A stretch of 40,213 bases of DNA from Methanotrichaceae archaeon (GTDB taxonomy: Archaea; Halobacteriota; Methanosarcinia; Methanotrichales; Methanotrichaceae): positions 1 to 40,213 of the forward strand of contig CAWDLW010000001.1 of the NCBI GenBank assembly GCA_963803145.1, read 5' to 3'. Under the pieces are notes generated by a model. That model was given only the letters and a program-made list of their open reading frames with translations, ran no database searches and had not been told where the DNA came from. Made by a program: the position numbers and the translations under genes. Shown here one piece after another: positions 13,221-38,664 of the stretch (the stretch's first letter is position 1; the number at the start of each line of letters is the position of its first letter).

Positions 13221-13292
13221 GGGCTTGTAGATCAGTGGTAGATCGCCGCCTTCGCAAGGCGGAGGCCGCGGGTTCAAATCCCGCCAAGTCCA
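13221..13292 (+). tRNA. tRNA-Ala (anticodon CGC), no intron, CCA not encoded
   Basis: Acceptor stem GGGCTTG/CAAGTCC-A with G3:U70, anticodon arm CCGCC-TTCGCAA-GGCGG, T-arm GCGGG-TTCAAAT-CCCGC. Confidence 0.97.
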
Positions 13293-18661: not shown

Positions 18662-21600
18662 TTATGTTACCTTTACAGGCACAACCTTGGCGGATATGCA
18701 TCCATCGATGTTGGCTCCGATCTTGAATGTCTTATCCCCAGGCGCTCCGAACACTGAGCTGAACTGGAGTGTTCCCAAAGAGATCCTCTGGAGCTGATCC
18801 GTCGGTCTGGCAGAATCCTGCGGTGGGATAAAGCTCAGATCCATTGGGTCCGTCAGCTCACCGTAGTCGTTGTAGAACCTCAAGGTGAGCGTATACGGGC
18901 TGTTGGCCCTCGTGGAGCTGAAGGACGGGACTATATCACAGGGCTTCAGCTGGCTTGGCATCGCTAACGTCAAGGGCTTAACGTAAATGTTCTGGCCGGT
19001 TGGATCTGCGGAGGCATATGCCACCCAGTACATCCCGTCAAAGGTGCTATAGGCCATGGACGATGACATCTGGTCGCCAGGCGCTGCCACTGCCACTGTG
19101 CTATCGATGGGCGTCCAATCTCTCAAGTACCTGTCCAAATACACATCGTAGGTGACTGCCTTATTTGAATCGTACAGCAGCAAGAACTGACCATTGATCC
19201 AGTTCAGCGATGGGTAGTCATGGTCTGAGCTGTCATATGTCATTCTCCTTGTATTGAGCAGGTTCAGGTTCGGATCATAACTCCTGACAAAGATGTTCTT
19301 GTTTCCTGTCTCATTGGATGTGTAGGCTACATAGAAGCTGCCGCTTGCGAATACAATAGATGGATGATCCTGGTACGATATCAAATTGGTCACCTGAACG
19401 TTCGCAATCGGATTCCAGTTCTGGTCAAACCTGGTGATGAATATGTCACCGCCGTTCTGAGAGCCTGTATCCCATGACTGGTATGCCATGAAGAACTGGT
19501 TGCCAACTCGCAGAAGCGATGGCGAATCCTGGTCTGTCACCGAGTCAGTGAGCTGCTTAGTATCGATGTAGTTCAGATTAGCGTCAAATCTCTTGAGGAA
19601 TATGTTCAGCACACCAGTCTGCCTTGAGGCGTATGCAACATAGTAGTAGCCGTTGGCGAAAATGACTGAGGGAGATCCCTCGTATGCAGTATCATTTGAT
19701 GCCCAAACGCTCCTAAGCTTATTCCATGTAGGATCGTATCTCTCCAGGTAAATATCTCCTTGGTAGCTCGGCCCAAGTGCAAAGGACTGATAAGCCAGGA
19801 GATATCCGTCGCCGGTGAAGACCAGCGACGGCTTGTTCTTCAGTGCTGCACCTGCCGTGAGCATTCTTATGGCCAGAGGATTCTGTAGTGTGTAGCGCTG
19901 GCCGAGGGCACTATCGTATCCTCCAGGACCTGCATGATACCCATCCCTTGCATATACGTAAACTGAGTAGTCGCCGGTGTCACTGGGTGCAGAAGCCCAT
20001 ATCCAGGTGTTGCTGTATGACCAGTCCTGAACGACCTTCCAGGTATTCCCTGTTGTTGGTCCTTTCAGCCAGAACCTGTAGAGAACTGGATCGTTATCAG
20101 GATCGGTGGCTAGAGCAGTCCATTTTACAGGTACGCCGGCATATTGCGGGCTGGGTTTATCAGGTACAAGGCCAGTGAGCTGCGGCGGCAGGTTAGGCCG
20201 CAGGATTGTGAATAGGGCGCTGGCATCGTCATCCCATCCCTGTGGCCCGGCATGGAATCCATCTCTAACCTGAGCATCGACTAACGTTATGCCAACATCT
20301 GCTGGCGTTGTCAGCCATGTCCAGGTGCTATCGGTGGACCAATCGCGGGCCAGCTTCCAGAGCCCTCCAGTTGATGGGCCCTTTACCCAGTACCTGTAGA
20401 ACAGCAGATCTCCATCGGGGTCGAATGCATTTGCCTTCCACTGGACGGCTGCTCCTACAGGCTCAGGGCTTGGTACGTTCGTAGCCAGGCTTGTTATTAC
20501 CGGCGGCGTGTTGACTGCCAGTATGGAATAGCCTGCAACGTCATAGTCATCCCATCCGTTGGGTCCTGCATGGTGCCCGTCCCTCACCAGAACTAGAACC
20601 TCGCTCGGACCTACATCAAAGCCTGTTGTCCGCCAGATCCATCTATTGTTTGGCGTCCAGCCGGTCTGATCCTCCCAGAAGCCGAAGGTTGATGGGCCTC
20701 TGAGCAGATACCTGTACTGTATCTGGTCGCCATCAGGATCATGTGCTACCGTTGTCCACTTCACCCAGCTTCCTGCGAACTGCGGGCTCGGCCTGTCTGC
20801 AAACAGGAAGTCAACTTCTGGAGGCCGATTGCCCGGAGTCAAGGTAAAGCTCGACGTCGTGCGGATATCGTAGCTGTTGGGACTCGCATGATATCCATCC
20901 CTTATCCAGACCTCGGCCTGGTAAGTTCCAGGGAACAGGCCTGCTGTATTCCAGACCCATGTGTTGCTGGTTATGTAGTTTGTATCCTTCAGCAGTGCAC
21001 CGCCTGGCGCTCTGATGAAGAACCTGTATTGCAGCGGATCTCCATTTGGATCAGTTGCGGTTGCCGTCCAAGTGATCGGCACTCCCGCGGGTCGTGGGCT
21101 GGAGGGGCTGGGAGTCAGTGTCGGATTGATCGGCGGCGGGTTATAGTTGCCGAAATCGATTCCAATCTTGCTCTCGCCTGAATGAAGGAGGATGGAGTAG
21201 CTGCCGCCTGATGGCGCAGTCTGCGTCCATCCCGTCTTTGTAACTTCGCCCACAACATAGTTGCCCGGCTGCAGATTGATGAAGCTGTATCCTCCATATG
21301 CATCCGTTGTCGCAGTTCTGACAACTGTGTTATTCGTGGCGTTCTTAAGCTGAATCGTCCAGCCTGCTAAACCTGGGTCGCCGTTATTAATTCCATTTCC
21401 GTTCAGATCGTTGAACTTAACACCTGAGATAGAGCCAGTTCCTGGCGGCGTCAGGAGTCTGTTTCCGAAGTCCTTGCCTGTTGCTGTAGATGGCGGAGCT
21501 CCGAAGTTGAAGGTCACTGTGTAGGATCCGCCTGATGGCGCTGTCTGTGTCCATCCAGTTCTCGATACCTCGCTGACTGTATATGTTCCAGGTAAGAGAC

Positions 21601-24600
21601 CGCTGAAGGTATATGATCCATCTGCGGCTGTGTTGACAGTCTGAGACGGGAGTGGGAAATGGAACCATGTAGTTCCTGTCAGCACAATGCCCCAGCCGGA
21701 TATGCCAGGCTCACCTGCATCTTTCACACCGTTCCCATTCAGATCGTTGAACTTCATGCCGGATATGGCGTACGGTCCTATTATGCCGAAGTTGGCGTTG
21801 GATATGACTGTGGTCGTGCTTGTTACCGTCACTGTGACCGTTGAAGAGGTGGTCACAACGAATCCACTCGGCACTGGATCGACTACTGTGTAAGTTCCAG
21901 GGAGGAGCCCATTGAACGTATAGGATCCGTCGCTACCGGTTGTAGTTGTAGCGATATCCTGGCCGTTCTCCTGCAAATGAACTGTAAGTCCAGGTATTCC
22001 AGGCTCGCCAGGGTCCTGTATTCCGTTTTTATTGATATCGAAGAATTTCTTGCTCGATATCGTCACATTGCCCTTGTTTCCAAAGTCCATGCCGCTTACA
22101 TCTTTGTCGACCAGGTTCACTGAGTAAGATCCGCTCTTGGGCTCTGTCTGTGCCCAGCCGGACTGAAGCTCCTCGCTCACTGTATAAGACCCGGGTGCAA
22201 GGCCTGTGAACTTATATGAGCCGTCTGCAGCTGTGCTGGTGCCGTTGATAACGCTGCTGCCCTGAGCAAGCTGTATCTTCCAGCCTGCAAGGCCTGACTC
22301 ATTTCCGTCCCTAGCGCCGTTTCCGTTCAGATCATTGAACTTCATGCCGGATATGGAGTAAGTGGCACTGACCTTGTTTCCGAAGTCTATGCCGGTTACG
22401 TCCTTATCCTGCACCGTTACGGACTGGGGTCCACTCTTCGGCGCCGTCTGAGTCCAACCTGTCTGCAATACTTCACTCAAGGTGTAGGCACCATTGGCCA
22501 AACCCTCGAACGTGTACGAGCCATCAGCTCCTGTGGTGGTCGTGTTGATCACGTTGCCATCTCTAGCAAGTTGGATCTTCCAGCCTGCCAGGCCTGGCTC
22601 GCCGTCATTCACTCCGTTTCCATTCAGATCGTTGAACTTCCGACCGGATATCGAGAAGGCGCTAGCTTTGTTTCCAAAGTTGGCATCTGTTATGTCAGAA
22701 TTGCCAAGCGTTATCTTCTGTGATCCTCCAGCAGGAGCAGTTGCGCTCCAGCCTGTCTGGGCAGTCTCGCTAACTGTGTAGCTGCCAGGTGTCAGGCCTT
22801 CGAACTTGTACGAGCCGTCAGCTCCTGTGAGAGTACCGACTTGTGAGCCATCAGGCTTTGTCAGAGTGATTCTCCAGTCTGCGAGTCCTGGCTCGTTAGC
22901 ATCCTTAACTCCATTGCCATTCAGGTCATTGAACTTCACACCAGAGATGTTCTTGGTAGGTGCCGTTATTGTGAAGTATGCAACCTGCTCGCTGTCGAAG
23001 CTATTCGCATTTGCATGCTTGCCATCTCTGACCCAGACTCTGATCTGGTTCTGGCCGACATCCGCTGAGGATGCTGTCCATGTCCATGTATTGCTTGCAG
23101 CCCAATCAGTCTCAGGCTTCCAGGAACCGCTTGTGGATGTCCCGTTGAGGAAGAACCTGTAGAGTATTTGGTCTCCATCTGGATCAGTCGCATTTGCGGT
23201 CCAGACTATGCTCGTGCCCGAAAGCTGCGGGCTCGATTTATCTGGAGTCAGGCTGCGTAAGGCAGGTGGCGTGTTGTTCTCCACTGGAGAGACTGCAGGT
23301 TTTGTGACATTGGCCTGTGGAGTTATGTTTCTGGATGGCGTCGCGTTAATTGATGGTGTAACATTAGCCGGTGATGTAACATTAACCGGTGTTGTGACAT
23401 TCTTGACTGGAGTTACGTTCTTCACTGCTGGAACCGGCGCCGGTCTGGCAGTTATGGCGAATGTACCGATCTTGTTGCTATCGAAGCTGTTCTCATTCGC
23501 ATGCGTTCCATCTCTAGCCCAGACTTCGATCTGGTTGCTTCCAACGTCAGCATCGGTTGTATTCCAGGTCCATGTGTTATCCGTTGTCCAGCCAGTCTTT
23601 CCAACAGATTGGCCTTTTGTTGATGGTCCCTTCAGGAAGAACTTGTAAAGAATCTGATCGCCATCAGGATCGGTTGCATTTGCTGTCCAGTTTATGACAG
23701 TTCCTGCTACTTGCGGGCTCTGCTTATCTGAAATTAGACTATTCAGGACAGGCGGACTGTTGACCTTTGCAGGCGCTGGCGGAGTTACATTTCCAGTCGG
23801 CGTAATGTTCTTCGCCGGTGTAACATTCCTGGTTGGAGTTACATTTTGCACCGGCGTAATATTTACTGGCGTGACAGCAGGCTTAATCACAGGCGGTTTT
23901 GGCGCTGGAGCAGTTATTGTGTAACCCATCGTCTTATGGTCATCAAAGCCACTAACACCAGCATGCTGTCCATCCCTTACCCTGACCTCAACCTGATTAT
24001 TTCCAACATTTGCTGCAGTCGTATTCCAGGTCCATGTGTTATCTGCATCCCAACCTGTCATCGGCTGGCCATTCAAGAAGTATCTGTAGAGTATCTGATC
24101 GCCATCAGGGTCGATTGCATTTGCAGTCCAGGTTATGTTAGTTCCTGCAGCCTGTGGGCCGGGTTTGTCGGATGACAAGCTGTTTAAAACTGGTGGTTTA
24201 TTTGGCGGCGCAGCTATAGTAAACTGAGCAGTCTTCGAGTCATCTCCATTTGGATTATGCTTTCCATCCCTAACGCTGACTTCAATCTGGTTATCTCCAA
24301 TACTGGCGTTAGTTGTTGCCCAGATCCACTTGTTATCAGTTATCCAATCAGTTGCTGGCGTACCGTTCAGGAAGAACCTGTACTGAATTGGATCGTTATC
24401 AGGGTCTGCAGCAACTGCAGTCCAAGTTACTGTTGTTCCAACTACCTGAGGACTCTGTTTGTCAGATGTTAAGCTGTTTACAACCGGCGGCCTATTTGGC
24501 GGCGCAGCTATAGTAAACTGAGCTGTCTTGGAATCATCTCCATTTGGATTATGCTTTCCATCCCTGACGCTGACTTGAATTGAATGAGATCCGATATCAG

Positions 24601-26992
24601 CCGTTGACGTCATCCAGGTCCATGACGGATTGCCAGACCAATCCATTTCAGGCTTATTATCAAGGAAGAACCTGTACTGAATTGGGTCATTATCAGGGTC
24701 GGTTGCGTTTGCAGTCCAGTTTATGACAGTTCCTGCCCCTTGCGGACTCTGCTTGTCAGATGTCAGGCTGTTTACAACTGGTGGTTTATTTGGCGGTGCA
24801 ATTATAGTAAATTGAGATGTCTTGGAATCGTCTCCATTAGGATTATGCTTTCCATCCCTAACACTGATTTCAATTGAATGAGACCCGATATCAGCAGTTG
24901 ATGTGTTCCAGGTCCACGAAGGATTGCCTGACCAATCTGTCGCAGGCTGATTGTCCAGGAGGAACCTATACTGAATTGGATCATTGTCAGGGTCACTCGC
25001 CTGAGATGTCCATGATATGGCTGTACCTGCCGCCTGAGGACTGGACTTATCTGATTTCAAACTATTTACAACAGGCGGCTTATTTGGCGGCGCAATTATG
25101 GTAAATTGAGATGTCTTGGAATCGTCTCCATTAGGATTATGCTTTCCATCCCTAACACTGATTTCAATTGAATGAGACCCGATATCAGCAGTTGATGTGG
25201 TCCAAGTCCACGAAGGATTGCTAGACCAATCCGCCTGAGGCTGATTATCAAGGAAGAACCTATACTGAATTGGGTCATTATCTGGATCTGTTGCGTTTGC
25301 AGTCCAGTTTATGACAGTTCCTGCCCCTTGCGGACTCTGCTTGTCAGATGTCAGGCTGTTTACAACTGGTGGTTTATTTGGCGGTGCAATTATAGTAAAT
25401 TGAGATGTCTTGGAATCGTCTCCATCAGGGTTATGCTTTCCATCCCTAACTCTAACTTCAATTGAATGAGATCCAACATCAGCTGCCGATGTGGTCCAAA
25501 TCCACGAAGGATTGCTAGACCAATCTGCCTGAGGCTGATTATCAAGGAAGAATCTATACTGAATTGGATCGTTATCAGGATCAGCTGCATCTGCAGTCCA
25601 GGTTATAGTTGTTCCCGCAACCTGAGGACTCTGTTTGTCAGGCTTTAGACCATTTACAACTGGCGGCTTATTTGGCGGTGCGACTATAGTAAACTGAGCT
25701 GTCTTTGAGTCATCTCCATTTGGATTGTGCTTTCCATCCCTAGCGCTGACTTGAATTGAATGAGATCCGATATCAGCCGTTGATGTAGTCCAAGTCCATG
25801 ATGGATTGCTCGACCAATCCGTTTCAGGCTTATTATCAAGGAAGAATCTATACTGAATTGGATCATTATCAGGATCACTGGCCTGCGAAGTCCATGCTAT
25901 GGTTGTGCCTGCGACTTGCGGGCTGGAATTATCGGGTATCAGGCTGCCGATCACTGGAGGCTTATTAACCGGCGCAACAGGCGTTGGCGCAGGTGCAAGC
26001 GTAGGTGCACTTATAGTAAAGCTGGCAGACTTGCGATCATCGAAGCTATTCTCGTTTGCATTCTTGCCGTCTCTAACCCAGACTTCAACCTGGTTCTCCC
26101 CAATATCTGCCTCGCTTGTAGTCCATGTCCAGGTGTTGTCTGTAGTCCAGCCTGTCTGAGGCTTCGATACGCTGCCTGTTGATGGCCCGCTCAGGAAGAA
26201 TCTGTAAAGGATTTGGTCTCCATCAGGATCGGTTGCATCTGCAGTCCAAGTTACTGCTACGCCAGCGGTCATAGGGCTCATTGGGCTTGGTATGAGACTA
26301 TTGACTACAGGCGGCGTATCCTTCTGGACATTCCCTGAGGTTTGTGTCTGGGTTGGTATTTGAAGGGTTTGTGTTGGTTGTTGAATTTGCGTAGGTAATT
26401 GCATTTGCTGAGTCGGCGGCTGAGTTAACGTCTGCCCAGGCATTTGCACTGATCCAGGCTCAGGTGATGCGATCGTACTCTGAGGTTGAACAGGCGCCGT
26501 TTGAGCAGGCGCTGTTTGGACAGGAGCCGTTATCTCATAACTCTCAACCTGCATTGCGTCGTAGCCATTTGGTCCGGCATGGTTGCCATCTCTTGCCAGG
26601 ACGCGAATCTGGCTTTGGCCCACATCAGAAGACGCTGCCGTCCAATCCCAGCTATCGTCACTAGACCAATCGGTCACATTCTTCCATATGCTGCCCGTCG
26701 AGGGCCCCATCAGCTGGAACTTATAAGAGACCGTATCGCCATCAGGATCGAACGCTTTCGCTGTCCATGTTATGGTTGTACCTGCCCCTTGCGGACTGGG
26801 CTTATCAGGTACTAGACCGGCAATTACAGGAAGCGAATTCTGATCCGGTGTGCTTCCAGTAGTCATAGGAAGCCCACCTTGAGGGGTTTCTGTTGGAAAT
26901 CCCGTCAAAGGTTGCGCTGATGCTGATACTGCTAATAGTACTCCAAATACGATTACAACTAATAGCATGAGGAGTATATCTATATATTTCAT
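18662..26992 (-). CDS. Giant secreted repeat protein (adhesin-like): 15 Ig/PKD-like repeats, 6 SdrD-B-like repeats, a propeller-like region and a small C-terminal domain
   Basis: Signal peptide from MKYIDILL (ATG 26992; the ORF extends to 27079). Repeats counted by eye from PPV..SL..DK.SPQ...DPD.D...YRF...RDG.H and ISG.KFNDLNGNG motifs. Confidence 0.9.
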   Translation of the reverse strand: MKYIDILLMLLVVIVFGVLLAVSASAQPLTGFPTETPQGGLPMTTGSTPDQNSLPVIAGLVPDKPSPQGAGTTITWTAKAFDPDGDTVSYKFQLMGPSTGSIWKNVTDWSSDDSWDWTAASSDVGQSQIRVLARDGNHAGPNGYDAMQVESYEITAPVQTAPAQTAPVQPQSTIASPEPGSVQMPGQTLTQPPTQQMQLPTQIQQPTQTLQIPTQTQTSGNVQKDTPPVVNSLIPSPMSPMTAGVAVTWTADATDPDGDQILYRFFLSGPSTGSVSKPQTGWTTDNTWTWTTSEADIGENQVEVWVRDGKNANENSFDDRKSASFTISAPTLAPAPTPVAPVNKPPVIGSLIPDNSSPQVAGTTIAWTSQASDPDNDPIQYRFFLDNKPETDWSSNPSWTWTTSTADIGSHSIQVSARDGKHNPNGDDSKTAQFTIVAPPNKPPVVNGLKPDKQSPQVAGTTITWTADAADPDNDPIQYRFFLDNQPQADWSSNPSWIWTTSAADVGSHSIEVRVRDGKHNPDGDDSKTSQFTIIAPPNKPPVVNSLTSDKQSPQGAGTVINWTANATDPDNDPIQYRFFLDNQPQADWSSNPSWTWTTSTADIGSHSIEISVRDGKHNPNGDDSKTSQFTIIAPPNKPPVVNSLKSDKSSPQAAGTAISWTSQASDPDNDPIQYRFLLDNQPATDWSGNPSWTWNTSTADIGSHSIEISVRDGKHNPNGDDSKTSQFTIIAPPNKPPVVNSLTSDKQSPQGAGTVINWTANATDPDNDPIQYRFFLDNKPEMDWSGNPSWTWMTSTADIGSHSIQVSVRDGKHNPNGDDSKTAQFTIAAPPNRPPVVNSLTSDKQSPQVVGTTVTWTAVAADPDNDPIQYRFFLNGTPATDWITDNKWIWATTNASIGDNQIEVSVRDGKHNPNGDDSKTAQFTIAAPPNKPPVLNSLSSDKPGPQAAGTNITWTANAIDPDGDQILYRYFLNGQPMTGWDADNTWTWNTTAANVGNNQVEVRVRDGQHAGVSGFDDHKTMGYTITAPAPKPPVIKPAVTPVNITPVQNVTPTRNVTPAKNITPTGNVTPPAPAKVNSPPVLNSLISDKQSPQVAGTVINWTANATDPDGDQILYKFFLKGPSTKGQSVGKTGWTTDNTWTWNTTDADVGSNQIEVWARDGTHANENSFDSNKIGTFAITARPAPVPAVKNVTPVKNVTTPVNVTSPANVTPSINATPSRNITPQANVTKPAVSPVENNTPPALRSLTPDKSSPQLSGTSIVWTANATDPDGDQILYRFFLNGTSTSGSWKPETDWAASNTWTWTASSADVGQNQIRVWVRDGKHANANSFDSEQVAYFTITAPTKNISGVKFNDLNGNGVKDANEPGLADWRITLTKPDGSQVGTLTGADGSYKFEGLTPGSYTVSETAQTGWSATAPAGGSQKITLGNSDITDANFGNKASAFSISGRKFNDLNGNGVNDGEPGLAGWKIQLARDGNVINTTTTGADGSYTFEGLANGAYTLSEVLQTGWTQTAPKSGPQSVTVQDKDVTGIDFGNKVSATYSISGMKFNDLNGNGARDGNESGLAGWKIQLAQGSSVINGTSTAADGSYKFTGLAPGSYTVSEELQSGWAQTEPKSGSYSVNLVDKDVSGMDFGNKGNVTISSKKFFDINKNGIQDPGEPGIPGLTVHLQENGQDIATTTTGSDGSYTFNGLLPGTYTVVDPVPSGFVVTTSSTVTVTVTSTTTVISNANFGIIGPYAISGMKFNDLNGNGVKDAGEPGISGWGIVLTGTTWFHFPLPSQTVNTAADGSYTFSGLLPGTYTVSEVSRTGWTQTAPSGGSYTVTFNFGAPPSTATGKDFGNRLLTPPGTGSISGVKFNDLNGNGINNGDPGLAGWTIQLKNATNNTVVRTATTDAYGGYSFINLQPGNYVVGEVTKTGWTQTAPSGGSYSILLHSGESKIGIDFGNYNPPPINPTLTPSPSSPRPAGVPITWTATATDPNGDPLQYRFFIRAPGGALLKDTNYITSNTWVWNTAGLFPGTYQAEVWIRDGYHASPNSYDIRTTSSFTLTPGNRPPEVDFLFADRPSPQFAGSWVKWTTVAHDPDGDQIQYRYLLRGPSTFGFWEDQTGWTPNNRWIWRTTGFDVGPSEVLVLVRDGHHAGPNGWDDYDVAGYSILAVNTPPVITSLATNVPSPEPVGAAVQWKANAFDPDGDLLFYRYWVKGPSTGGLWKLARDWSTDSTWTWLTTPADVGITLVDAQVRDGFHAGPQGWDDDASALFTILRPNLPPQLTGLVPDKPSPQYAGVPVKWTALATDPDNDPVLYRFWLKGPTTGNTWKVVQDWSYSNTWIWASAPSDTGDYSVYVYARDGYHAGPGGYDSALGQRYTLQNPLAIRMLTAGAALKNKPSLVFTGDGYLLAYQSFALGPSYQGDIYLERYDPTWNKLRSVWASNDTAYEGSPSVIFANGYYYVAYASRQTGVLNIFLKRFDANLNYIDTKQLTDSVTDQDSPSLLRVGNQFFMAYQSWDTGSQNGGDIFITRFDQNWNPIANVQVTNLISYQDHPSIVFASGSFYVAYTSNETGNKNIFVRSYDPNLNLLNTRRMTYDSSDHDYPSLNWINGQFLLLYDSNKAVTYDVYLDRYLRDWTPIDSTVAVAAPGDQMSSSMAYSTFDGMYWVAYASADPTGQNIYVKPLTLAMPSQLKPCDIVPSFSSTRANSPYTLTLRFYNDYGELTDPMDLSFIPPQDSARPTDQLQRISLGTLQFSSVFGAPGDKTFKIGANIDGCISAKVVPVKVT
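24190..25970 (-). repeat. Tandem array of about six 294-bp coding repeats
   Basis: TTTGGCGG(C/T)GC recurs every 294 bp (about 24201, 24495, 24789, 25083, 25377, 25671). Confidence 0.92.
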
Positions 26993-27118
26993 TTTAAAAA
27001 ATTCTTTATAATCTGTTTTAAAATTACCCTTACCATCTGGGTATTCCATCGCCACACACTCCTTTTTTGTTTTCCCCATTCACGTTAAGTTCATTCATAT
27101 CTTAAACTTTACAGATAA

Positions 27119-27142
27119 GATTTAAGTAGCTATTTTTCATAT
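27119..27142 (-). promoter_or_regulatory. Shared promoter box, copy D, upstream of the giant surface protein gene
   Basis: Minus strand reads ATATGAAAAATA-GCTA-CTTAAATC. Confidence 0.6.
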
Positions 27143-33434: not shown

Positions 33435-34131
33435 TCAAGTAGGCCCTATCCTGACCTCATTCGTGCCGTACTGAATCACATTGGCACCTGGGCCCGCCCT
33501 TGTCTTGAAGTTCGTGCTCTGATCATACTGGTTGTAGTTCTTATCGATAGACTGGCCGAAGTTGCTTCCTGTCTGAGTTACTGGCGAGCTGCTCCTGCCA
33601 GCGACAACTATGCCTGATGCCTGCTGGTTGACCTGATTGTAGGAGCCTGTTAGGTATGCCGTATTTCCCAGCGTCTGATTTGTTCTGTTCGCGTACGTCT
33701 GTGCATAGGCGAGCATTCCCTGGATCAGCACGCTATTATTTCCTGTAATTGAACCTGTATTCCAGCCGTTCTGGAATATATTCTGGCCATAGGCTCCCTG
33801 GGCAACTTGCTGATTGGCATAATTATTGTTGCCCAAAACCGCTAACGCGTTTGAGCCGCTCTGAGTGATCTGGCTGCCGCGGGCATGCTGACCCTGCACA
33901 ACATTGTATTGTTCCCAACAACACAGCATTCGCCGCTCGATCTGGCTGCGGCGTCTGGGAGACGCCCTGAGTGATGTGGTTATTGTTGCCCGATACTACA
34001 GCTGCGTTCGCAGCACTCTGGCTAACCTGGCCGCTGCCTGCCATATTGATGCTTTGCTTTACCACATTGCCTGCAGATGCTGAGGATATCAGCAAGAGCA
34101 GCAAAGCTACTATAACTGCTAAGCTTCTCAT
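33435..34131 (-). pseudogene. Secreted Q/N/G-rich ~29-aa repeat protein (curlin-like beta-solenoid), frameshifted in repeat 2
   Basis: Signal peptide MRSLAVIVALLLLLISSASA; repeats such as SQITQSGSNALAVLGNNNYANQQVAQGAYG. ORFs 33823-34146 and 33435-33929 join across a damaged patch near 33885-33955. Confidence 0.7.
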
Positions 34132-34191
34132 TTTTCTTTTCCCCACTTTCTACCATTTTATTGTTGAATCAGCCTTGGGTCCCGAAATTGA

Positions 34192-34283
34192 ATCCGAGGC
34201 AGGCGAGAAGGCCGGAGGGATTGGCCCTCCCGCCCTTCGGATCTTCTGGACATGGCGATATACCCGACTCCCCTATCGCCATG
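34192..34283 (-). ncRNA. Two-hairpin element, copy A (5' leader of the curlin-like gene)
   Basis: Stem CATGGCGATA/TATCGCCATG with loop GGGGAGTCGGGTA, then a GGAGGG/CCCTCC hairpin; similar to copies at 35760-35834 and 37565-37640. Confidence 0.55.
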
Positions 34284-34300
34284 CCCATCCAGTCCACTCG

Positions 34301-34324
34301 CAAATAAAGCTCTATTTTTCATGT
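34301..34324 (-). promoter_or_regulatory. Shared promoter box, copy A
   Basis: Minus strand reads ACATGAAAAATA-GAGC-TTTATTTG. Confidence 0.6.
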
Positions 34325-34624
34325 AGGGGTTATATCGGGCTGAGCTAACTCGGATGAGCATTTTTGGCAACCGAATGGTGGAAAACAAAAACATTCATCG
34401 AACCAAAATGAAATATCCTAAATGCCTCGCGAGGTATAAAATAGCGTCAGCAGTGATATTATAGAATGACGATAATATTATGATACGGGCATTTCATTGA
34501 TTTTAGGCGAAAAGACTGGTGGCCGCAGCCCCACACCTTATAAAGGGTGACCGCCAAAGATAGCATTCCCATTAAGGTCTAGTGGACTGTGGATCTGGCA
34601 ATCCAGATTATGGCAGGATGATAA

Positions 34625-35728
34625 ATGGCAACAATCGAGGAGCAGATTAAGGCGCTGGAAGAGGAGATCCTCAATACTCAGAAGAACAAGGCTACAGAGC
34701 ATCATTTAGGCAAAATCAAGGCCAAGATCGCGAAGCTGAAAGCGCAGCTTGAGCTTCAGAAAATCAAGGGCGGTGGAGGCGGCCGCAGATTCTATATCAA
34801 GAAATCGGGCGACGCAACCGTGGCTCTGGTCGGCTTTCCATCCGTGGGTAAATCGAGCCTCCTGAATCTGATGACTGGAACCGATTCCGCGGTTGCAGCC
34901 TATAATTTCACCACTCTTGAGGTTATCCCAGGCTTAATGGAGTATAAAGGTGCAAAGATTCAGATCCTGGATATGCCGGGTTTGATTCGAGGCGCCGCAA
35001 AAGGCAAAGGTAGGGGCCGCGAGGTCATCACAGCCGCCCGTGCTGCAGATGTAATTCTACTATTGGGAGATGTCTTCAACTACAGGCTCGATATTCTGGA
35101 AAAAGAGCTTTACGACGCCGGCATTAGACTGGATAAGCAGCCACCGAATATACACATCACAGAGGATACCAGAGGCGGCTTAATTGTTCGCAGCACTGTC
35201 CAGCTGACTAAGATGACAGAGAAAGAGATCGCCGAGATCATCCAGGCATATGGTATTATGAATGCCAATGTCACAGTTCGAGAGAATATCGATACAGATA
35301 GCCTCGTTGATTTTCTTGCCGGGAACAGAGTTTACATACCGAGTGTTGTAGCCATCAACAAGTATGACCTGAATTATCCTGGCGCTGATGAAAAGATAAG
35401 AGGAAACATCGGCAGGGATTATCTGCCTGTTTCGGCAGCCACTGGTCTCGGGATTGAGGAGTTGAAGGCGGAGCTCTATAATACACTCGGATTCATCCGC
35501 GTCTACCTCAAGCCCAAAGGGGAAAAGGCGGATATGAATGAGCCGCTGGTATTATTGGAGGGCTGTACAGTCAAGTCAGTCTGTGAGCATTTACACCGAG
35601 ATTTCGTGGACCTCTTCAGATACGCCCTTGTCTGGGGAGAAAGCGCGAAGTTTCCGGGTCAGTCAGTAGGGCTGGAACATACACTTTTGGATTGCGACGT
35701 TATCTCCATCATAACCAGAAGAAGGTAG
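34625..35728 (+). CDS. DRG/Rbg family (OBG superfamily) GTPase with TGS domain
   Basis: NKATEHH, GFPSVGKS, YNFTT, DMPG and NKYD motifs; C-terminal WG.SAKFPGQ.VGL.H.L.D.D. Confidence 0.95.
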   Translation: MATIEEQIKALEEEILNTQKNKATEHHLGKIKAKIAKLKAQLELQKIKGGGGGRRFYIKKSGDATVALVGFPSVGKSSLLNLMTGTDSAVAAYNFTTLEVIPGLMEYKGAKIQILDMPGLIRGAAKGKGRGREVITAARAADVILLLGDVFNYRLDILEKELYDAGIRLDKQPPNIHITEDTRGGLIVRSTVQLTKMTEKEIAEIIQAYGIMNANVTVRENIDTDSLVDFLAGNRVYIPSVVAINKYDLNYPGADEKIRGNIGRDYLPVSAATGLGIEELKAELYNTLGFIRVYLKPKGEKADMNEPLVLLEGCTVKSVCEHLHRDFVDLFRYALVWGESAKFPGQSVGLEHTLLDCDVISIITRRR

Positions 35729-35759
35729 TTTTAACAAAGCAAACACAAGGTAAATCATG

Positions 35760-35834
35760 AAAAATCATGAAATGGGAGGGAGGAGAATCCTCCCACTTGA
35801 AAATGGCGCGATCCCCACTCTCCTACTCGCCAAT
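35760..35834 (-). ncRNA. Two-hairpin element, copy B (putative stand-alone sRNA)
   Basis: TGGCG-AGTAGGAGAGTGGGGATCG-CGCCA, then TGGGAGG-ATTCTCCTC-CCTCCCA, then a T-rich tail; convergent with the GTPase gene. Confidence 0.55.
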
Positions 35835-35852
35835 ATGATATGGCGCCGTTGA

Positions 35853-35876
35853 AGGTTAAAGCCTTATTTTTCATAT
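35853..35876 (-). promoter_or_regulatory. Shared promoter box, copy B
   Basis: Minus strand reads ATATGAAAAATA-AGGC-TTTAACCT. Confidence 0.6.
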
Positions 35877-36055
35877 AAATGTGATGTAGATAAGATCTAG
35901 ATTATGACGCAACACTATCTATCTCAGTCTGTCTAAGAGGGTTTTCTATCAGTTTGCTGTCAACCCAAATATATAAAATTTTAAATTTATTATTTACGAA
36001 CCTATCATCAGTATCATAAGTAGGGTATTTGTATTAGTAGTGCAATCGTCGCTAC

Positions 36056-37540
36056 ATGCGCGGTCCGTCAATGCTGTACCTGATATCTCTGCTTCTTTCA
36101 CTTATTGTCGTGGGCTCGTGCATGACTGATCTGGATTATAGATTAAGTAAAACAAAGGACTCAGATTCGGCGATAACCAGCGAGGAAAGTTTTCACGGCG
36201 ACGTCTCCGCAAGACTCTCTGTGAAGAATGCTGGAAATTATGCGAGAATTATGATCTATATGGATGAGCCCATACCGATAGAGGAGCTAGATAGTCTGAG
36301 CATGCAGGTAGATCCCATTTCAGGTGACGGAGATGCCCAAATAGAGATCTTCCTGGACGGAGACGGCGATGATAGCTATAACAGCGGCGACTCGAATGAT
36401 GTTAGGCTGCGCACGATCAAAAAGTCCTGGTCGGAGACAGGTATTCAGCCGGGAGAGTGGAGCGAACTTGATGGAACTGATCTGAGTTACGAGAAGTATG
36501 GAGACGATAGCTTCGGCACCAAAAGTTTTGAGGATTGCCGAAAGGCGCTGAGCGGTAAAACTGCTGTAAGAATGTACATCACCGTCTACAAGGATTCCGC
36601 AGTTAACACAACGACTGCATATATCGATTACCTAAAGATCGGGGATCAAATTATAAGCTTCGAGCCCCTGGAAAGAGAGTTGGCCAAATCAGCGCCAAAA
36701 TCAGCCAGTCCAGGCAGCGAGATGACATATACCATAACCTATGGAAATAATTTTCTTGAACCTCTTAATCTTCAGATAAGAGAAAACTATGATCCAAGAA
36801 CCCTCTTTGTAAGCGCCGATCCTGTGCCTGATGAAGGCACGAATAACATCTGGACGATACGCGATCTGCCGCCGGGGGAGCACGGCCAGATTAGGGTATT
36901 GGTGAGGACGGGGAAAATAAGCTGTAAGGCAGATATCAAGGGCACAGTTTCAGGCATAGGTTACGCCTCATCAAACGGCCGTCTTTCGACCGACCTAATT
37001 GGATTTACAGTAACAAATAGCGTTGATATCGTATCCAGCAAATTCAACATCACGGCCTCTGCCTCAACTTTAATCAGGTCGATTGAAGGATCAACCATCG
37101 CATTTAGAGAGCACGGCTCAGGATATTATAGCTCTGAAGAGCAACTGAGCTATTCGGCTACTAGGGTCTACGCTTTTCGCGACATAAATGCCAGCAGATC
37201 TTATTATGAGACTAATACCTCTCCATCTCTGTTGAGTGGGTTATTCAATAGAAGCTGGTATGCTAGTGTCCTCTGTGAAGACAAGGCAAAGGATATGATG
37301 ATGAGCGAGGCTTACGCCGAAGGGATGTATCTCGATCTAGACTCACAAGCCTATCTAAGCAAGAAAAGTTCCTATTTTGATGCCACCTCAAGCTTTTCAG
37401 GCTTTTCAAAGCACACTTTGCGCTTGGAGAATAACGTTTATGTCGAACGTTTCGTGGGAAATTTCACAACAACCAACAATGCAAGAGCAAAGTCAGATAC
37501 AACAAGCGAAAGCAGTGACGATGATGAGTGGCTGAAGTGA
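36056..37540 (+). CDS. Secreted protein with a central DUF11-like domain
   Basis: Signal peptide; KSA..SASPG.E.TYTITYGN...YDP...FVSADP.PD....W....L.PGE.G.I.V.V pattern. Confidence 0.8.
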   Translation: MRGPSMLYLISLLLSLIVVGSCMTDLDYRLSKTKDSDSAITSEESFHGDVSARLSVKNAGNYARIMIYMDEPIPIEELDSLSMQVDPISGDGDAQIEIFLDGDGDDSYNSGDSNDVRLRTIKKSWSETGIQPGEWSELDGTDLSYEKYGDDSFGTKSFEDCRKALSGKTAVRMYITVYKDSAVNTTTAYIDYLKIGDQIISFEPLERELAKSAPKSASPGSEMTYTITYGNNFLEPLNLQIRENYDPRTLFVSADPVPDEGTNNIWTIRDLPPGEHGQIRVLVRTGKISCKADIKGTVSGIGYASSNGRLSTDLIGFTVTNSVDIVSSKFNITASASTLIRSIEGSTIAFREHGSGYYSSEEQLSYSATRVYAFRDINASRSYYETNTSPSLLSGLFNRSWYASVLCEDKAKDMMMSEAYAEGMYLDLDSQAYLSKKSSYFDATSSFSGFSKHTLRLENNVYVERFVGNFTTTNNARAKSDTTSESSDDDEWLK

Positions 37541-37564
37541 TGCCCTGAAAGTCCGGAATGGAAA

Positions 37565-37640
37565 TTTGGAGTTGGGAGGTCGGAGAGAAGCCCTCCCAGG
37601 GAGGTCTGACGGTTACGATCCCACTCTCCTATCCGCCAAA
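37565..37640 (-). ncRNA. Two-hairpin element, copy C (putative stand-alone sRNA)
   Basis: TGGCGG-ATAGGAGAGTGGGATCGTAA-CCGTCA, then TGGGAGG-GCTTCTCTCCGA-CCTCCCA; the second stem is identical to that of copy B. Confidence 0.55.
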
Positions 37641-37656: not shown

Positions 37657-37680
37657 TATTTAAATTACTATTTTTCATGT
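37657..37680 (-). promoter_or_regulatory. Shared promoter box, copy C
   Basis: Minus strand reads ACATGAAAAATA-GTAA-TTTAAATA (canonical TATA box). Confidence 0.65.
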
Positions 37681-37749
37681 ACACTTCATATAAGCTTTAT
37701 CTGAATGCATAACCGCAAGCCTATTATCCTCAGAACCGGCCTCTGGTAT

Positions 37750-38664
37750 ATGGCCATGAATACTGAGCGTTTTATTGATGACGCGATCGCGGAGATACGC
37801 CGTGACGTGAAAGGACGAGCCATAATTGGTTTATCGGGCGGCGTCGACAGCTCAGTCTGTGCAATGCTCGCCCACCGTGCTTTGGGCGACAGACTTGTTC
37901 CTGTTTATGTGGATTCTGGGCTGATGAGACAGTTCGAATCGGATAGGATAGAGACACTTTTCGAGGACATCGGTTTAGTCAGGGTAAACGCTGAAGACAG
38001 GTTCCTTGATGCTCTCAAGGGCGTGAAAGACCCCGAGGCGAAGAGAAAGATAGTTGGCGAGACATTCATAAGAGTCTTCGAGGAGGAGGCAAGAAAGATC
38101 GGAGGGGATACACTACTTCAGGGGACCATTTATCCCGATAGGATCGAGTCTGAGGGAGGAATCAAATCCCATCATAACGTCGGCGGGCTTCCAAGCGTCA
38201 TGGAGTTCAAATGCTTAGTCGAGCCTCTTCGCGAACTCTACAAGGATGAGGTTAGGGAAGTTGCAAGGACGCTCGGCCTGCCTGTAGAAATAAGCGAGAG
38301 GATGCCTTATCCCGGGCCAGGCATGGCTGTGCGTATCGTTGGCGAGGTCACTAAGGAGAAGCTTGAGGTCGTCAGAAAGGCCAATGCAATCGTCGAGGAG
38401 GAGGTCATGAGGTTTGGCCCATGGCAGGCGTTTGCAGCAATCCTCGGAAAGGCCACGGGCGTAAAGGGAGATAACAGAGTTTACGGCTGGGTGATTGCAG
38501 TCCGCTCGGTATCATCAAGAGACGCCATGACTGCAGATGTGATGGAGCTGCCCTGGGATGTTCTGAGACGCATCTCCAGCAGGATAACGGGTGAGATACC
38601 AACGGTTGTGCGAGTTGTTTACGATATCACGCCCAAGCCTCCAGGAACAATTGAGTTTGAATAA
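37750..38664 (+). CDS. guaAB: GMP synthase subunit B (ATP pyrophosphatase)
   Basis: [29 protein letters not shown] and [14 protein letters not shown] motifs; start at 37750 or 37756. Confidence 0.96.

Follow-up and report, generated by a model that had tools for sequence, protein, structure and literature searches.

A putative family of short structured RNAs in Methanotrichaceae, with a leader copy and two apparently free-standing copies in a cassette of secreted-protein genes

The DNA considered here, a stretch of 40,213 nucleotides (nt) at the start of contig CAWDLW010000001.1 from a Methanotrichaceae archaeon (assembly GCA_963803145.1; hereafter the window), carries three copies of a short two-hairpin element, designated A, B and C, all on the minus strand. 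Each consists of a predicted promoter, a variable spacer of ~22 nt, a 5' hairpin (hairpin 1) and a GC-rich hairpin 2; hairpin 1 bears the motif (U)AGGRGAGUSGGG in all three, at one motif copy per RNA. Copy A lies in front of a gene for a curlin-like secreted repeat protein (33823..34131, minus strand). Copy B lies 43 nt past, and convergent to, a DRG-type GTPase gene (34625-35728; MMR_HSR1 and TGS). Copy C is convergent to the gene for a secreted protein of 494 amino acids (aa) belonging to no family (36056-37540), and adjoins the promoter of a GMP-synthase subunit gene. The three are best regarded as paralogous members of a family of short structured noncoding RNAs (ncRNAs) that is specific to the Methanotrichaceae among the genomes searched.

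The RNA predicted for copy A spans 34191..34283 of the minus strand: hairpin 1 (34283-34251) has the stem CAUGGCGAUA/UAUCGCCAUG and the loop UAGGGGAGUCGGG, the whole sequence between the stem arms being GGGGAGUCGGGUA, and the long, GC-rich hairpin 2 (34243-34191) has the loop AAUCCCUCC. Copy B (35771..35832, minus strand) forms hairpin 1 at 35832-35804 by pairing UGGCG with CGCCA around a loop that holds UAGGAGAGUGGGG, and hairpin 2 at 35798-35771 by pairing GGGAGG with CCUCCC around the loop UUCUCCU. In copy C (37573..37638, minus strand), hairpin 1 (37638-37607; UGGCGG/CCGUCA, with one G·U) contains UAGGAGAGUGGGA; a single-stranded linker, GACCUCCC (37606-37599), leads to hairpin 2 (37597-37574; GGGAGGG/CCUCCC, with CUCUCC in the loop). 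B and C would thus be free-standing RNAs of ~62-66 nt, with both ends predicted. Neither shows a conserved small open reading frame (ORF); the sole candidate in B falls where the genomes G001 and G002 have different sequence.

The original prediction, made from the sequence of this stretch, placed three minus-strand copies here, and a direct reading finds each of them. The joint pattern ATGAAAAATA-N28-36-GGCG-N1-3-TAGGRGAGT matches three times in the window and not once in any of 100 dinucleotide-preserving shuffles, and the 13-nt motif TAGGRGAGTSGGG occurs five times in the 4.13-Mb genome, where ~0.5 would be expected from its length. The further statement that B ends in a T-tract stands in part: there is a T5 at 35764-35760 in this genome, but it is not kept in two genomes of the same genus.

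The promoter of each copy is of the archaeal type, TAcATGAAAAAtAg followed by a TATA-like TTTAWWT; the upstream box takes the form (C/T)ATGAAAAATA(G/A), also written TACATGAAAAA. For A (34302..34326, minus strand), the sequence reads CTACATGAAAAATAG and then the TATA-like CTTTATTT, in columns that are invariant or nearly so in the alignment A5 of 46 promoter and 5'-motif sequences. For B (35854..35878, minus strand), it reads TTATATGAAAAATAA and then CTTTAACC, and everything from box through TATA is identical in the orthologues of G001 and G002, whereas the downstream spacer differs. For C (37658..37682, minus strand), it reads GTACATGAAAAATAG and then ATTTAAAT, adjacent to and facing away from the promoter region of the gene for the GMP-synthase subunit (37705-38664, plus strand). 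Little or no variation is seen in A5 at the box, the TATA-like element or GC..GAGT.GG, whereas the ~20 columns between TATA and hairpin are unconserved; the same contrast of conserved promoter and unconserved spacer holds between this genome and its two congeners. The promoter-like boxes, and the paired stems with diverging spacers, are in this way supported as first described; GGCG, placed by the earlier account 32-34 nt downstream of the shared box, measures 31-33 nt past the last base of that box. The transfer RNA (tRNA) genes of this genome carry GAAA(G)-N2-5-TTTAWWT ~30-38 nt ahead of the mature 5' end. The boxes of A, B and C fit this form, which puts the predicted start at the hairpin base; transcription would most likely begin at the base of the 5' hairpin.

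The strict box occurs nine times in the 4.13-Mb genome, four of these inside the window. The fourth (TATGAAAAATAG + CTACTTAAAT; 27130..27141, minus strand) has no hairpin, gives a partial match at E 0.19 to the profile R2 described next, and precedes an ORF of 2805 aa (18662-27079). The same box and TATA-like strings occur in several other genomes of the family, and a promoter type common to cell-envelope genes would be one reading of this.

How far the family extends was judged by patterns and by profiles. The TAGGRGAGTSGGG motif pattern was present in all 24 of the other family genomes first sampled, and in 1/3 and 0/13 genomes of two sister families; the pattern RTGAAAAA-N38-62-GAGTSGG was found in 94 of 105 family genomes, representing 13 of 16 genera. 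A first profile, R1, built on the B-type alignment A4, proved too narrow (seven matches at E up to 1 in 46 sources, with the window copies missed) and was superseded by R2, a sequence-only promoter-plus-motif profile built from A5. R2 matches 101 of 105 Methanotrichaceae genomes and all 16 genera, with one to three matches each, many of those in model-source genomes arising by construction; all seven genomes of genus g6 were nevertheless matched, though g6 contributed no sequence to the model. In this genome there are exactly three matches: A (34250-34326; E 9.9e-11), B (7.8e-12) and C (1.5e-15). In a class-wide sample, R2 matched 48 of 49 family genomes and one of 51 from other families, the last marginally (E 9.7e-4). 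The copies, roughly 200 over the family, typically lie 1.5-3 kb apart on one contig, in many genomes, and orthologues of copy A were recognized in G001, G002, G017 and G042.

The elements resemble no catalogued RNA. Rfam 15 has a single match in the whole window, a tRNA at 13221-13292; between 33900 and 38000, at E up to 10, there are four matches, all far under the gathering threshold, the best one on an element being mir-1249 at 18.8 bits against a threshold of 83. Twenty related loci gave no match, so that the claim of a family outside Rfam is borne out both for the elements and for these loci. No tRNA-like or split-tRNA structure was found by ARAGORN in the loci L001-L003, and inspection by eye rejected a kink-turn (L7Ae) site, an H/ACA guide and a C/D box: there is no GA·AG arrangement, no stable upper stem and no boxes. 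A mobile-element end was also considered, whether a miniature inverted-repeat transposable element or a repetitive extragenic palindrome. It was set aside because only three copies are present by R2, because their positions are syntenic across genera, and because searches of 50,697 phage and 72,556 plasmid records with copy B and its promoter gave no match.

Single-sequence folding energy is convincing for A alone: A folds at -48.6 kcal/mol (z -3.86; 0/200 shuffles fold as well), B gives a weak signal (z -2.2; 3/200) and C an insignificant one (z -0.24; 76/200). The case for structure therefore rests on comparison with relatives. In A4, which holds 20 sequences of the commonest B-type, 96.1% of 415 cells are paired over 21 pairs, versus at most 58.2% with slid partners; compensatory changes occur in five of the 21 pairs, all in hairpin 2, and the covariation score was reached by none of 500 shuffles, although the alignments are MAFFT-based and the sequences related, so that shuffle controls overstate independence. 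In A6, with 15 C-type sequences, 94.4% of cells are paired and compensatory changes occur in three of 12 pairs, again in hairpin 2. Covarying homologues, which the original prediction had named as a test of itself, are accordingly found in related genomes across the Methanotrichaceae. The motif itself is lodged in different ways. In the common B-type, AGGAGAGU pairs with ACUU-A-UCCU beneath a GGGG loop; in this genome it falls within a large loop instead. In the C-type, the RNAalifold consensus pairs GGRG-GU of the motif with ACCUCC of the linker (six pairs, 98.9% paired); judging from the loop lengths, we read this helix and the hairpin-1 stem either as a strained pseudoknot or as alternatives. 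Kissing between loop 1 and loop 2 (GGAGA/UCUCC in B and C; GGGGA/UCCCU in A) was considered and rejected: A-type orthologues with GGAGAG or UGAGAG loops retain UCCCUCC in loop 2.

The strand can be read from the wobble pairs. In A4, 19 of 20 sequences have G·U at one pair of hairpin 1, and at several further pairs A-U or G-C alternates with G·U; in A6, one helix pair is A-U in eight sequences and G·U in seven. A G·U on the minus strand is an A·C mismatch on the plus strand, and the RNA is placed on the minus, G-rich strand by this evidence. The opposite reading would make B and C hairpins in the 3' untranslated regions (UTRs) of the GTPase and 494-aa genes, with the box (CTATTTTTCAT on the plus strand) as an oligo-T terminator. 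In its favour, all four loci with inspected flanks (B, C, L042 and L043) sit just 3' of the plus-strand-equivalent gene and are followed by T5-T7. It is nonetheless very improbable, and was rejected on the G·U evidence: pairing is not kept on that strand, where 19/20 sequences in A4 and 7/15 in A6 would have A·C. Moreover, ~25 nt around the T-run are conserved well past the needs of a terminator and resemble, in the opposite direction, a transcription factor B recognition element and TATA box (BRE/TATA); copy A has no upstream plus-strand gene; and in G119 the A-type unit continues as far as the Shine-Dalgarno sequence and start codon (AUG) of the curlin-like gene.

The curlin-like protein has no Pfam or NCBIfam family. 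Its gene is split in the window between 33823..34131 and a second, overlapping ORF at 33435-33929, by a frameshift or an assembly error; relatives have a single ORF of ~240 aa, found after A-type copies in three of four other genomes compared and in G119. A-type copies precede the orthologous gene for this secreted repeat protein (…GNVVKQSI.M.GSGQVSQSAANAAVV…) in four of five genomes compared, the exception being G002, where copy A is kept and a different ORF lies downstream. The A-type unit of G119 extends into AGGUGAU-N4-AUG of the curlin-like gene, and this continuity with the gene's own ribosome-binding site (RBS) and start codon identifies A as a 5' leader, as had been proposed. B and C, described from the start as stand-alone, indeed have no downstream gene on their own strand and are convergent to opposite-strand genes. 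With A the only copy placed like a leader, and B and C pointing into the 3' ends of opposite-strand genes, a riboswitch or cis-acting leader was rejected as an account of the whole family.

The neighbourhood travels together. Syntenic copies of B lie downstream of the GTPase in other genera, B-type copies being present in mesophilic Methanothrix genomes, and synteny with the curlin-like gene, the secreted protein of 488-494 aa and often the DRG GTPase is retained across genomes. In G119, a single contig of 1.88 Mb, the cassette is compact (L177 1265-3830, at ~1566760-1569330 of contig C1): curlin-like gene, A, 488-aa gene, C, and no GTPase. The 488-aa secreted protein of this genome is divergent, with a weak DUF11-repeat match. 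The major sheath protein MspA is reported to be Mthe_1069 (PMC10470525) and to have a size of 60.9 kDa (PMC6242892); the size and position of the 494-aa neighbour of copy C do not suggest that it is the same protein.

What such RNAs might do is suggested by the pieces they combine. Over 59 distinct elements the invariant core is GAGUGGG, the preceding UAGGR being variable. Downstream of the motif, 52 of the 59 have CCUCC, a sequence complementary to RBSs and putatively exposed, averaging 1.46 occurrences per element where mononucleotide shuffles give 0.18. In 15 of the 59 the linker reads A(G/U)ACCUCC, and the 16S ribosomal RNA (rRNA) ends in ...GGAUCACCUCCUAA, its tail reading ACCUCCUAA; most linker-bearing C-type copies read AGACCUCCU(A), that is, the last 7-8 nt of 16S rRNA, and copy C of the window, with ACCUCCC, matches six. 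The motif, for its part, is a bulged complement of the 16S tail, pairing at -12 to -13 kcal/mol for B, C and the related hairpins D and E (below); -12 was reached by 1.3% of 2000 random 17-mers. As the RNAs join a Shine-Dalgarno-like motif to an anti-Shine-Dalgarno-like CCUCC, the best guess at their function is translational control by RNA pairing.

The proposal would run as follows. Each RNA would have a separate promoter, all of one special type, driving its transcription on the minus strand; the 5' hairpin would present the near-invariant (U)AGGRGAGUGGG(G), with the GC-rich hairpin 2 next. Copy A would act as leader of the mRNA for the curlin-like secreted repeat protein, with B and C free in the same conserved cassette. 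The 5' motif might pair with the 3' end of 16S rRNA or with CCUCC segments, of which nearly all members would expose at least one in linker, loop or tail; these segments could mask the RBSs of target mRNAs, or the 5' motif could mask them in cis or compete in trans. Taken whole (an ncRNA family with its own promoters, A as leader, B and C as free RNAs, and pairing of Shine-Dalgarno with anti-Shine-Dalgarno sequences), this is the explanation we prefer, tentatively, and it falls a little short of being probable.

The comparisons establish the sequence family, its promoter-like layout, its strand, covariation in hairpin 2, synteny and its spread through the family; transcription, action in trans and the targets are inferences. 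Several things weigh against the proposal. Promoters, RNA starts and RNA ends are all predictions. Hairpin 1 shows no compensatory, two-sided changes in A4 or A6; it varies on one side only, and its pairing draws correspondingly weaker support, from one-sided G·U changes alone. Seven of the 59 elements have no CCUCC downstream of the motif, and the enrichment of this sequence overstates independence, the shuffles being mononucleotide and the sequences GC-rich and related; the link of CCUCC and the motif to the 16S tail was, besides, noticed post hoc. Copy A pairs poorly with that tail (-8.9 kcal/mol). U-tracts of at least four follow hairpin 2 in only 25 of the 59 elements; in the genus-g8 sequences read, U4 tracts are mostly conserved as CCCUUUUGC. 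Finally, GAGUGGG is more invariant than the Shine-Dalgarno core AGGAG. The greater conservation of GAGUGGG counts against simple Shine-Dalgarno mimicry, and keeps alive both a protein that binds the motif and a sense/antisense partnership with other RNAs.

The second of these involves two further loci elsewhere in the genome. The D hairpin (L001 2331-2391, at ~67830-67890 of contig C25 of genome G000) has its G-rich strand on the minus strand and is flanked by genes for a class II aldolase and an M50/CBS protease, lying upstream of the latter. The E hairpin is duplicated in the assembly (L002 3113-3165 on contig C44; L003 ~2370-2425 on C45) and follows a larB-like (AIRC) gene at a distance of ~100 nt, often immediately past the cbiO stop codon. 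Both carry GAGCGGGUAGGRGAGUGGGGGUU closed by UACCCGCUC, invariant in 13/13 distinct D and 16/17 distinct E sequences (the remaining E copy departs at its final bases). The sole well-placed promoter, GAAAG.TTTATAT, is on the far side, ~22 nt from the hairpin and pointing in; relative to the motif, D and E may thus be transcribed from the strand opposite to that used by A, B and C. In Rfam 15, at E up to 10, these loci have chance-level matches only. Inspection by eye also rejected an origin-recognition box and a NikR operator: each locus stands alone and not in a cluster, and its half-sites are spaced variably or too far apart. Near the ends of C44 and C45, the larB-like gene and a 408-aa gene are duplicated together with the E hairpin (L002 3262-5296; L003 245-2279); with assembly contamination at 6.77%, this duplication may represent two strains. 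The M50/CBS protease gene seems leaderless, with a conserved CAAAAGATCTATTAAT ~22 nt before its ATG (L001 ~2395-2470, and in the alignment of D sequences). Its palindromic core, AGATCT, appears a second time upstream of D in some genomes and may mark either a bidirectional promoter or the site of a regulator.

Among the mechanisms to be set beside anti-RBS pairing, the nearest in rank borrows from CsrB and RsmZ: hairpin 1 would be a protein site through which the translation or stability of the curlin-like mRNA is controlled at A, with B and C as decoys. The presence of one near-invariant motif in both a leader and the stand-alone RNAs of one conserved cassette is just what this analogy would lead one to look for; so is the better conservation of GAGUGGG than of the Shine-Dalgarno-like part, and recognition by sequence would suit a motif that is kept whether it sits in a large loop, as here, or mostly in a stem under a GGGG loop, as in most B-type copies. 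Yet there is no candidate protein: PF02599 (CsrA) has no match in this genome, which is 99.3% complete, while the control was positive in three of 14 reference genomes. Each RNA has one motif where an efficient sponge has many, and in G002 copy A precedes a different ORF. On balance a protein with decoys seems unlikely. Ranked after it, and distinctly unlikely, is a trans-acting sense/antisense system in which C-rich RNAs made from the D and E loci (D' and E') would anneal to the G-rich motif shared by A, B and C, one set regulating or sponging the other through loop-loop contacts. The predicted D' and E' RNAs would hold CCCCACUCYCCUA, the exact complement of the A/B/C motif; a canonical BRE/TATA ~22 nt away on the far side points into the hairpin, with a pyrimidine before the predicted start in 30/30 sequences; and the D and E motif is near-invariant, the motif pattern being present in 24/24 family genomes. 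By prediction, B+D' and C+D' heterodimers are 12-16 kcal/mol more stable than the monomers, and the B-D' duplex reaches -48.6 kcal/mol, whereas 200 shuffles average -29.5 and do no better than -40.0; that the rRNA operon lacks a complement of the core also favours such a partner. But the inner stem of D has five G·U pairs, which form on the G-rich strand only, and the C-rich strand mostly has T4-T6 in a loop upstream of the complementary segment, where transcription could terminate early. D and E are invariant whereas the A/B/C motifs vary, so that there is no co-variation of partners, and common descent of the hairpins would explain the shared sequence without any pairing.

A more ambitious version joins the pairing ideas into a family-wide circuit, with one hairpin module used in both orientations: the C-rich RNAs of D and E would mimic the anti-Shine-Dalgarno sequence (CACUCUCCUA against CACCUCCUA of the rRNA), A, B and C would be their exact, G-rich and Shine-Dalgarno-like complements, B and C would serve as sponges, and through leader A the mRNA of the curlin-like surface protein would become a target. 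It is a long shot; if true, it would amount to a trans-encoded sense/antisense network controlling the translation of cell-envelope genes. The last alternative is at the level of DNA: TAGGRGAGTGGGG would serve a DNA-binding regulator as an operator immediately 3' of the start sites, and the RNAs would be by-products. Archaeal repressors often bind at about +5 to +20, and the motif lies at ~+5 to +20 of the A/B/C units; it faces either way with respect to the closest promoter (A/B/C versus D/E), as a double-stranded site would tolerate; and the shared upstream box, present also at the 2805-aa gene, suggests common transcriptional control. An operator, however, leaves too much unexplained to be other than improbable: the conserved 3' partner strands and the substitutions confined to G·U, the covarying hairpin 2, and the conserved CCUCC segments. 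Anti-RBS pairing thus ranks ahead of a protein motif with decoys, followed by sense/antisense action with D' and E', and then the DNA operator.

The anti-RBS reading has archaeal precedent in two small RNAs (sRNAs) of Methanosarcina mazei: according to a review, loop 2 of sRNA154 masks the RBS of glnA2, and sRNA41 masks RBSs inside the polycistronic mRNAs for ACDS (acetyl-CoA decarbonylase/synthase) (PMC5867862). The present elements, likened to these by description, are similarly intergenic, with their own promoters (here predicted from sequence), stem-loops and RBS-complementary segments, and with no conserved small ORF in B or C; they differ in their shared, special promoter box, in the invariance of a G-rich 5' motif and in having a leader among their paralogues. 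With the CsrB and RsmZ sponges they share a motif common to an mRNA leader and small RNAs, and GGA-containing hairpin loops; unlike those systems, there is no CsrA gene found here, only one motif per RNA, and a core of GAGUGGG rather than A(N)GGA. The C-rich-motif sRNAs of Gram-positive bacteria (RsaE/RoxS, RNAIII) are short multi-hairpin RNAs whose exposed UCCC- or CCUCC-like loops pair with Shine-Dalgarno regions; they are bacterial, unrelated in sequence, and without a Shine-Dalgarno-like G-rich partner in the same molecule. CopA/CopT and RNAI/RNAII are loop-loop antisense pairs whose members are encoded in cis, on the two strands of a single locus. D' and E', should they be produced, would together with A/B/C likewise place a perfect complement of at least 13 nt on the hairpins of two RNAs, though with the partners at unlinked loci and with transcription of the C-rich one predicted. 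Copy A, as a conserved structured 5' UTR before one orthologous gene, resembles cis-regulatory leaders in general; riboswitches are a poorer match, as B and C have no downstream gene and there is neither a known aptamer nor a recognisable expression platform.

Methanothrix and its relatives, acetate-using and hard to grow, are among the main biogenic producers of methane. The searchable full-text literature, as judged from the listings, yielded no work on regulatory RNAs of Methanothrix or Methanosaeta; the present family would be the first defined ncRNA family of the Methanotrichaceae, and it occurs in nearly every genome searched. It has a recognisable promoter of its own and is tied consistently to genes for secreted, amyloid-like surface proteins that are themselves uncharacterised. 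It would also allow anti-RBS or sponge-type RNA regulation to be tested in archaea, a domain with few known mechanisms.

One further unit of comparable design was seen at L004 2545-2640 (minus strand; ~40040-40140 of contig C49 of G000). It is genus-specific, occurring also in G001 and G002 (L031 and L038), and has a TATA box, two hairpins, the second of them GGAGA-GUGGGG-UCUCC, and several U-tracts. It lies ~100 nt upstream of an ORF resembling EPSP (5-enolpyruvylshikimate-3-phosphate) synthase, whose start, judged by eye, reads like the N-terminus of that enzyme.

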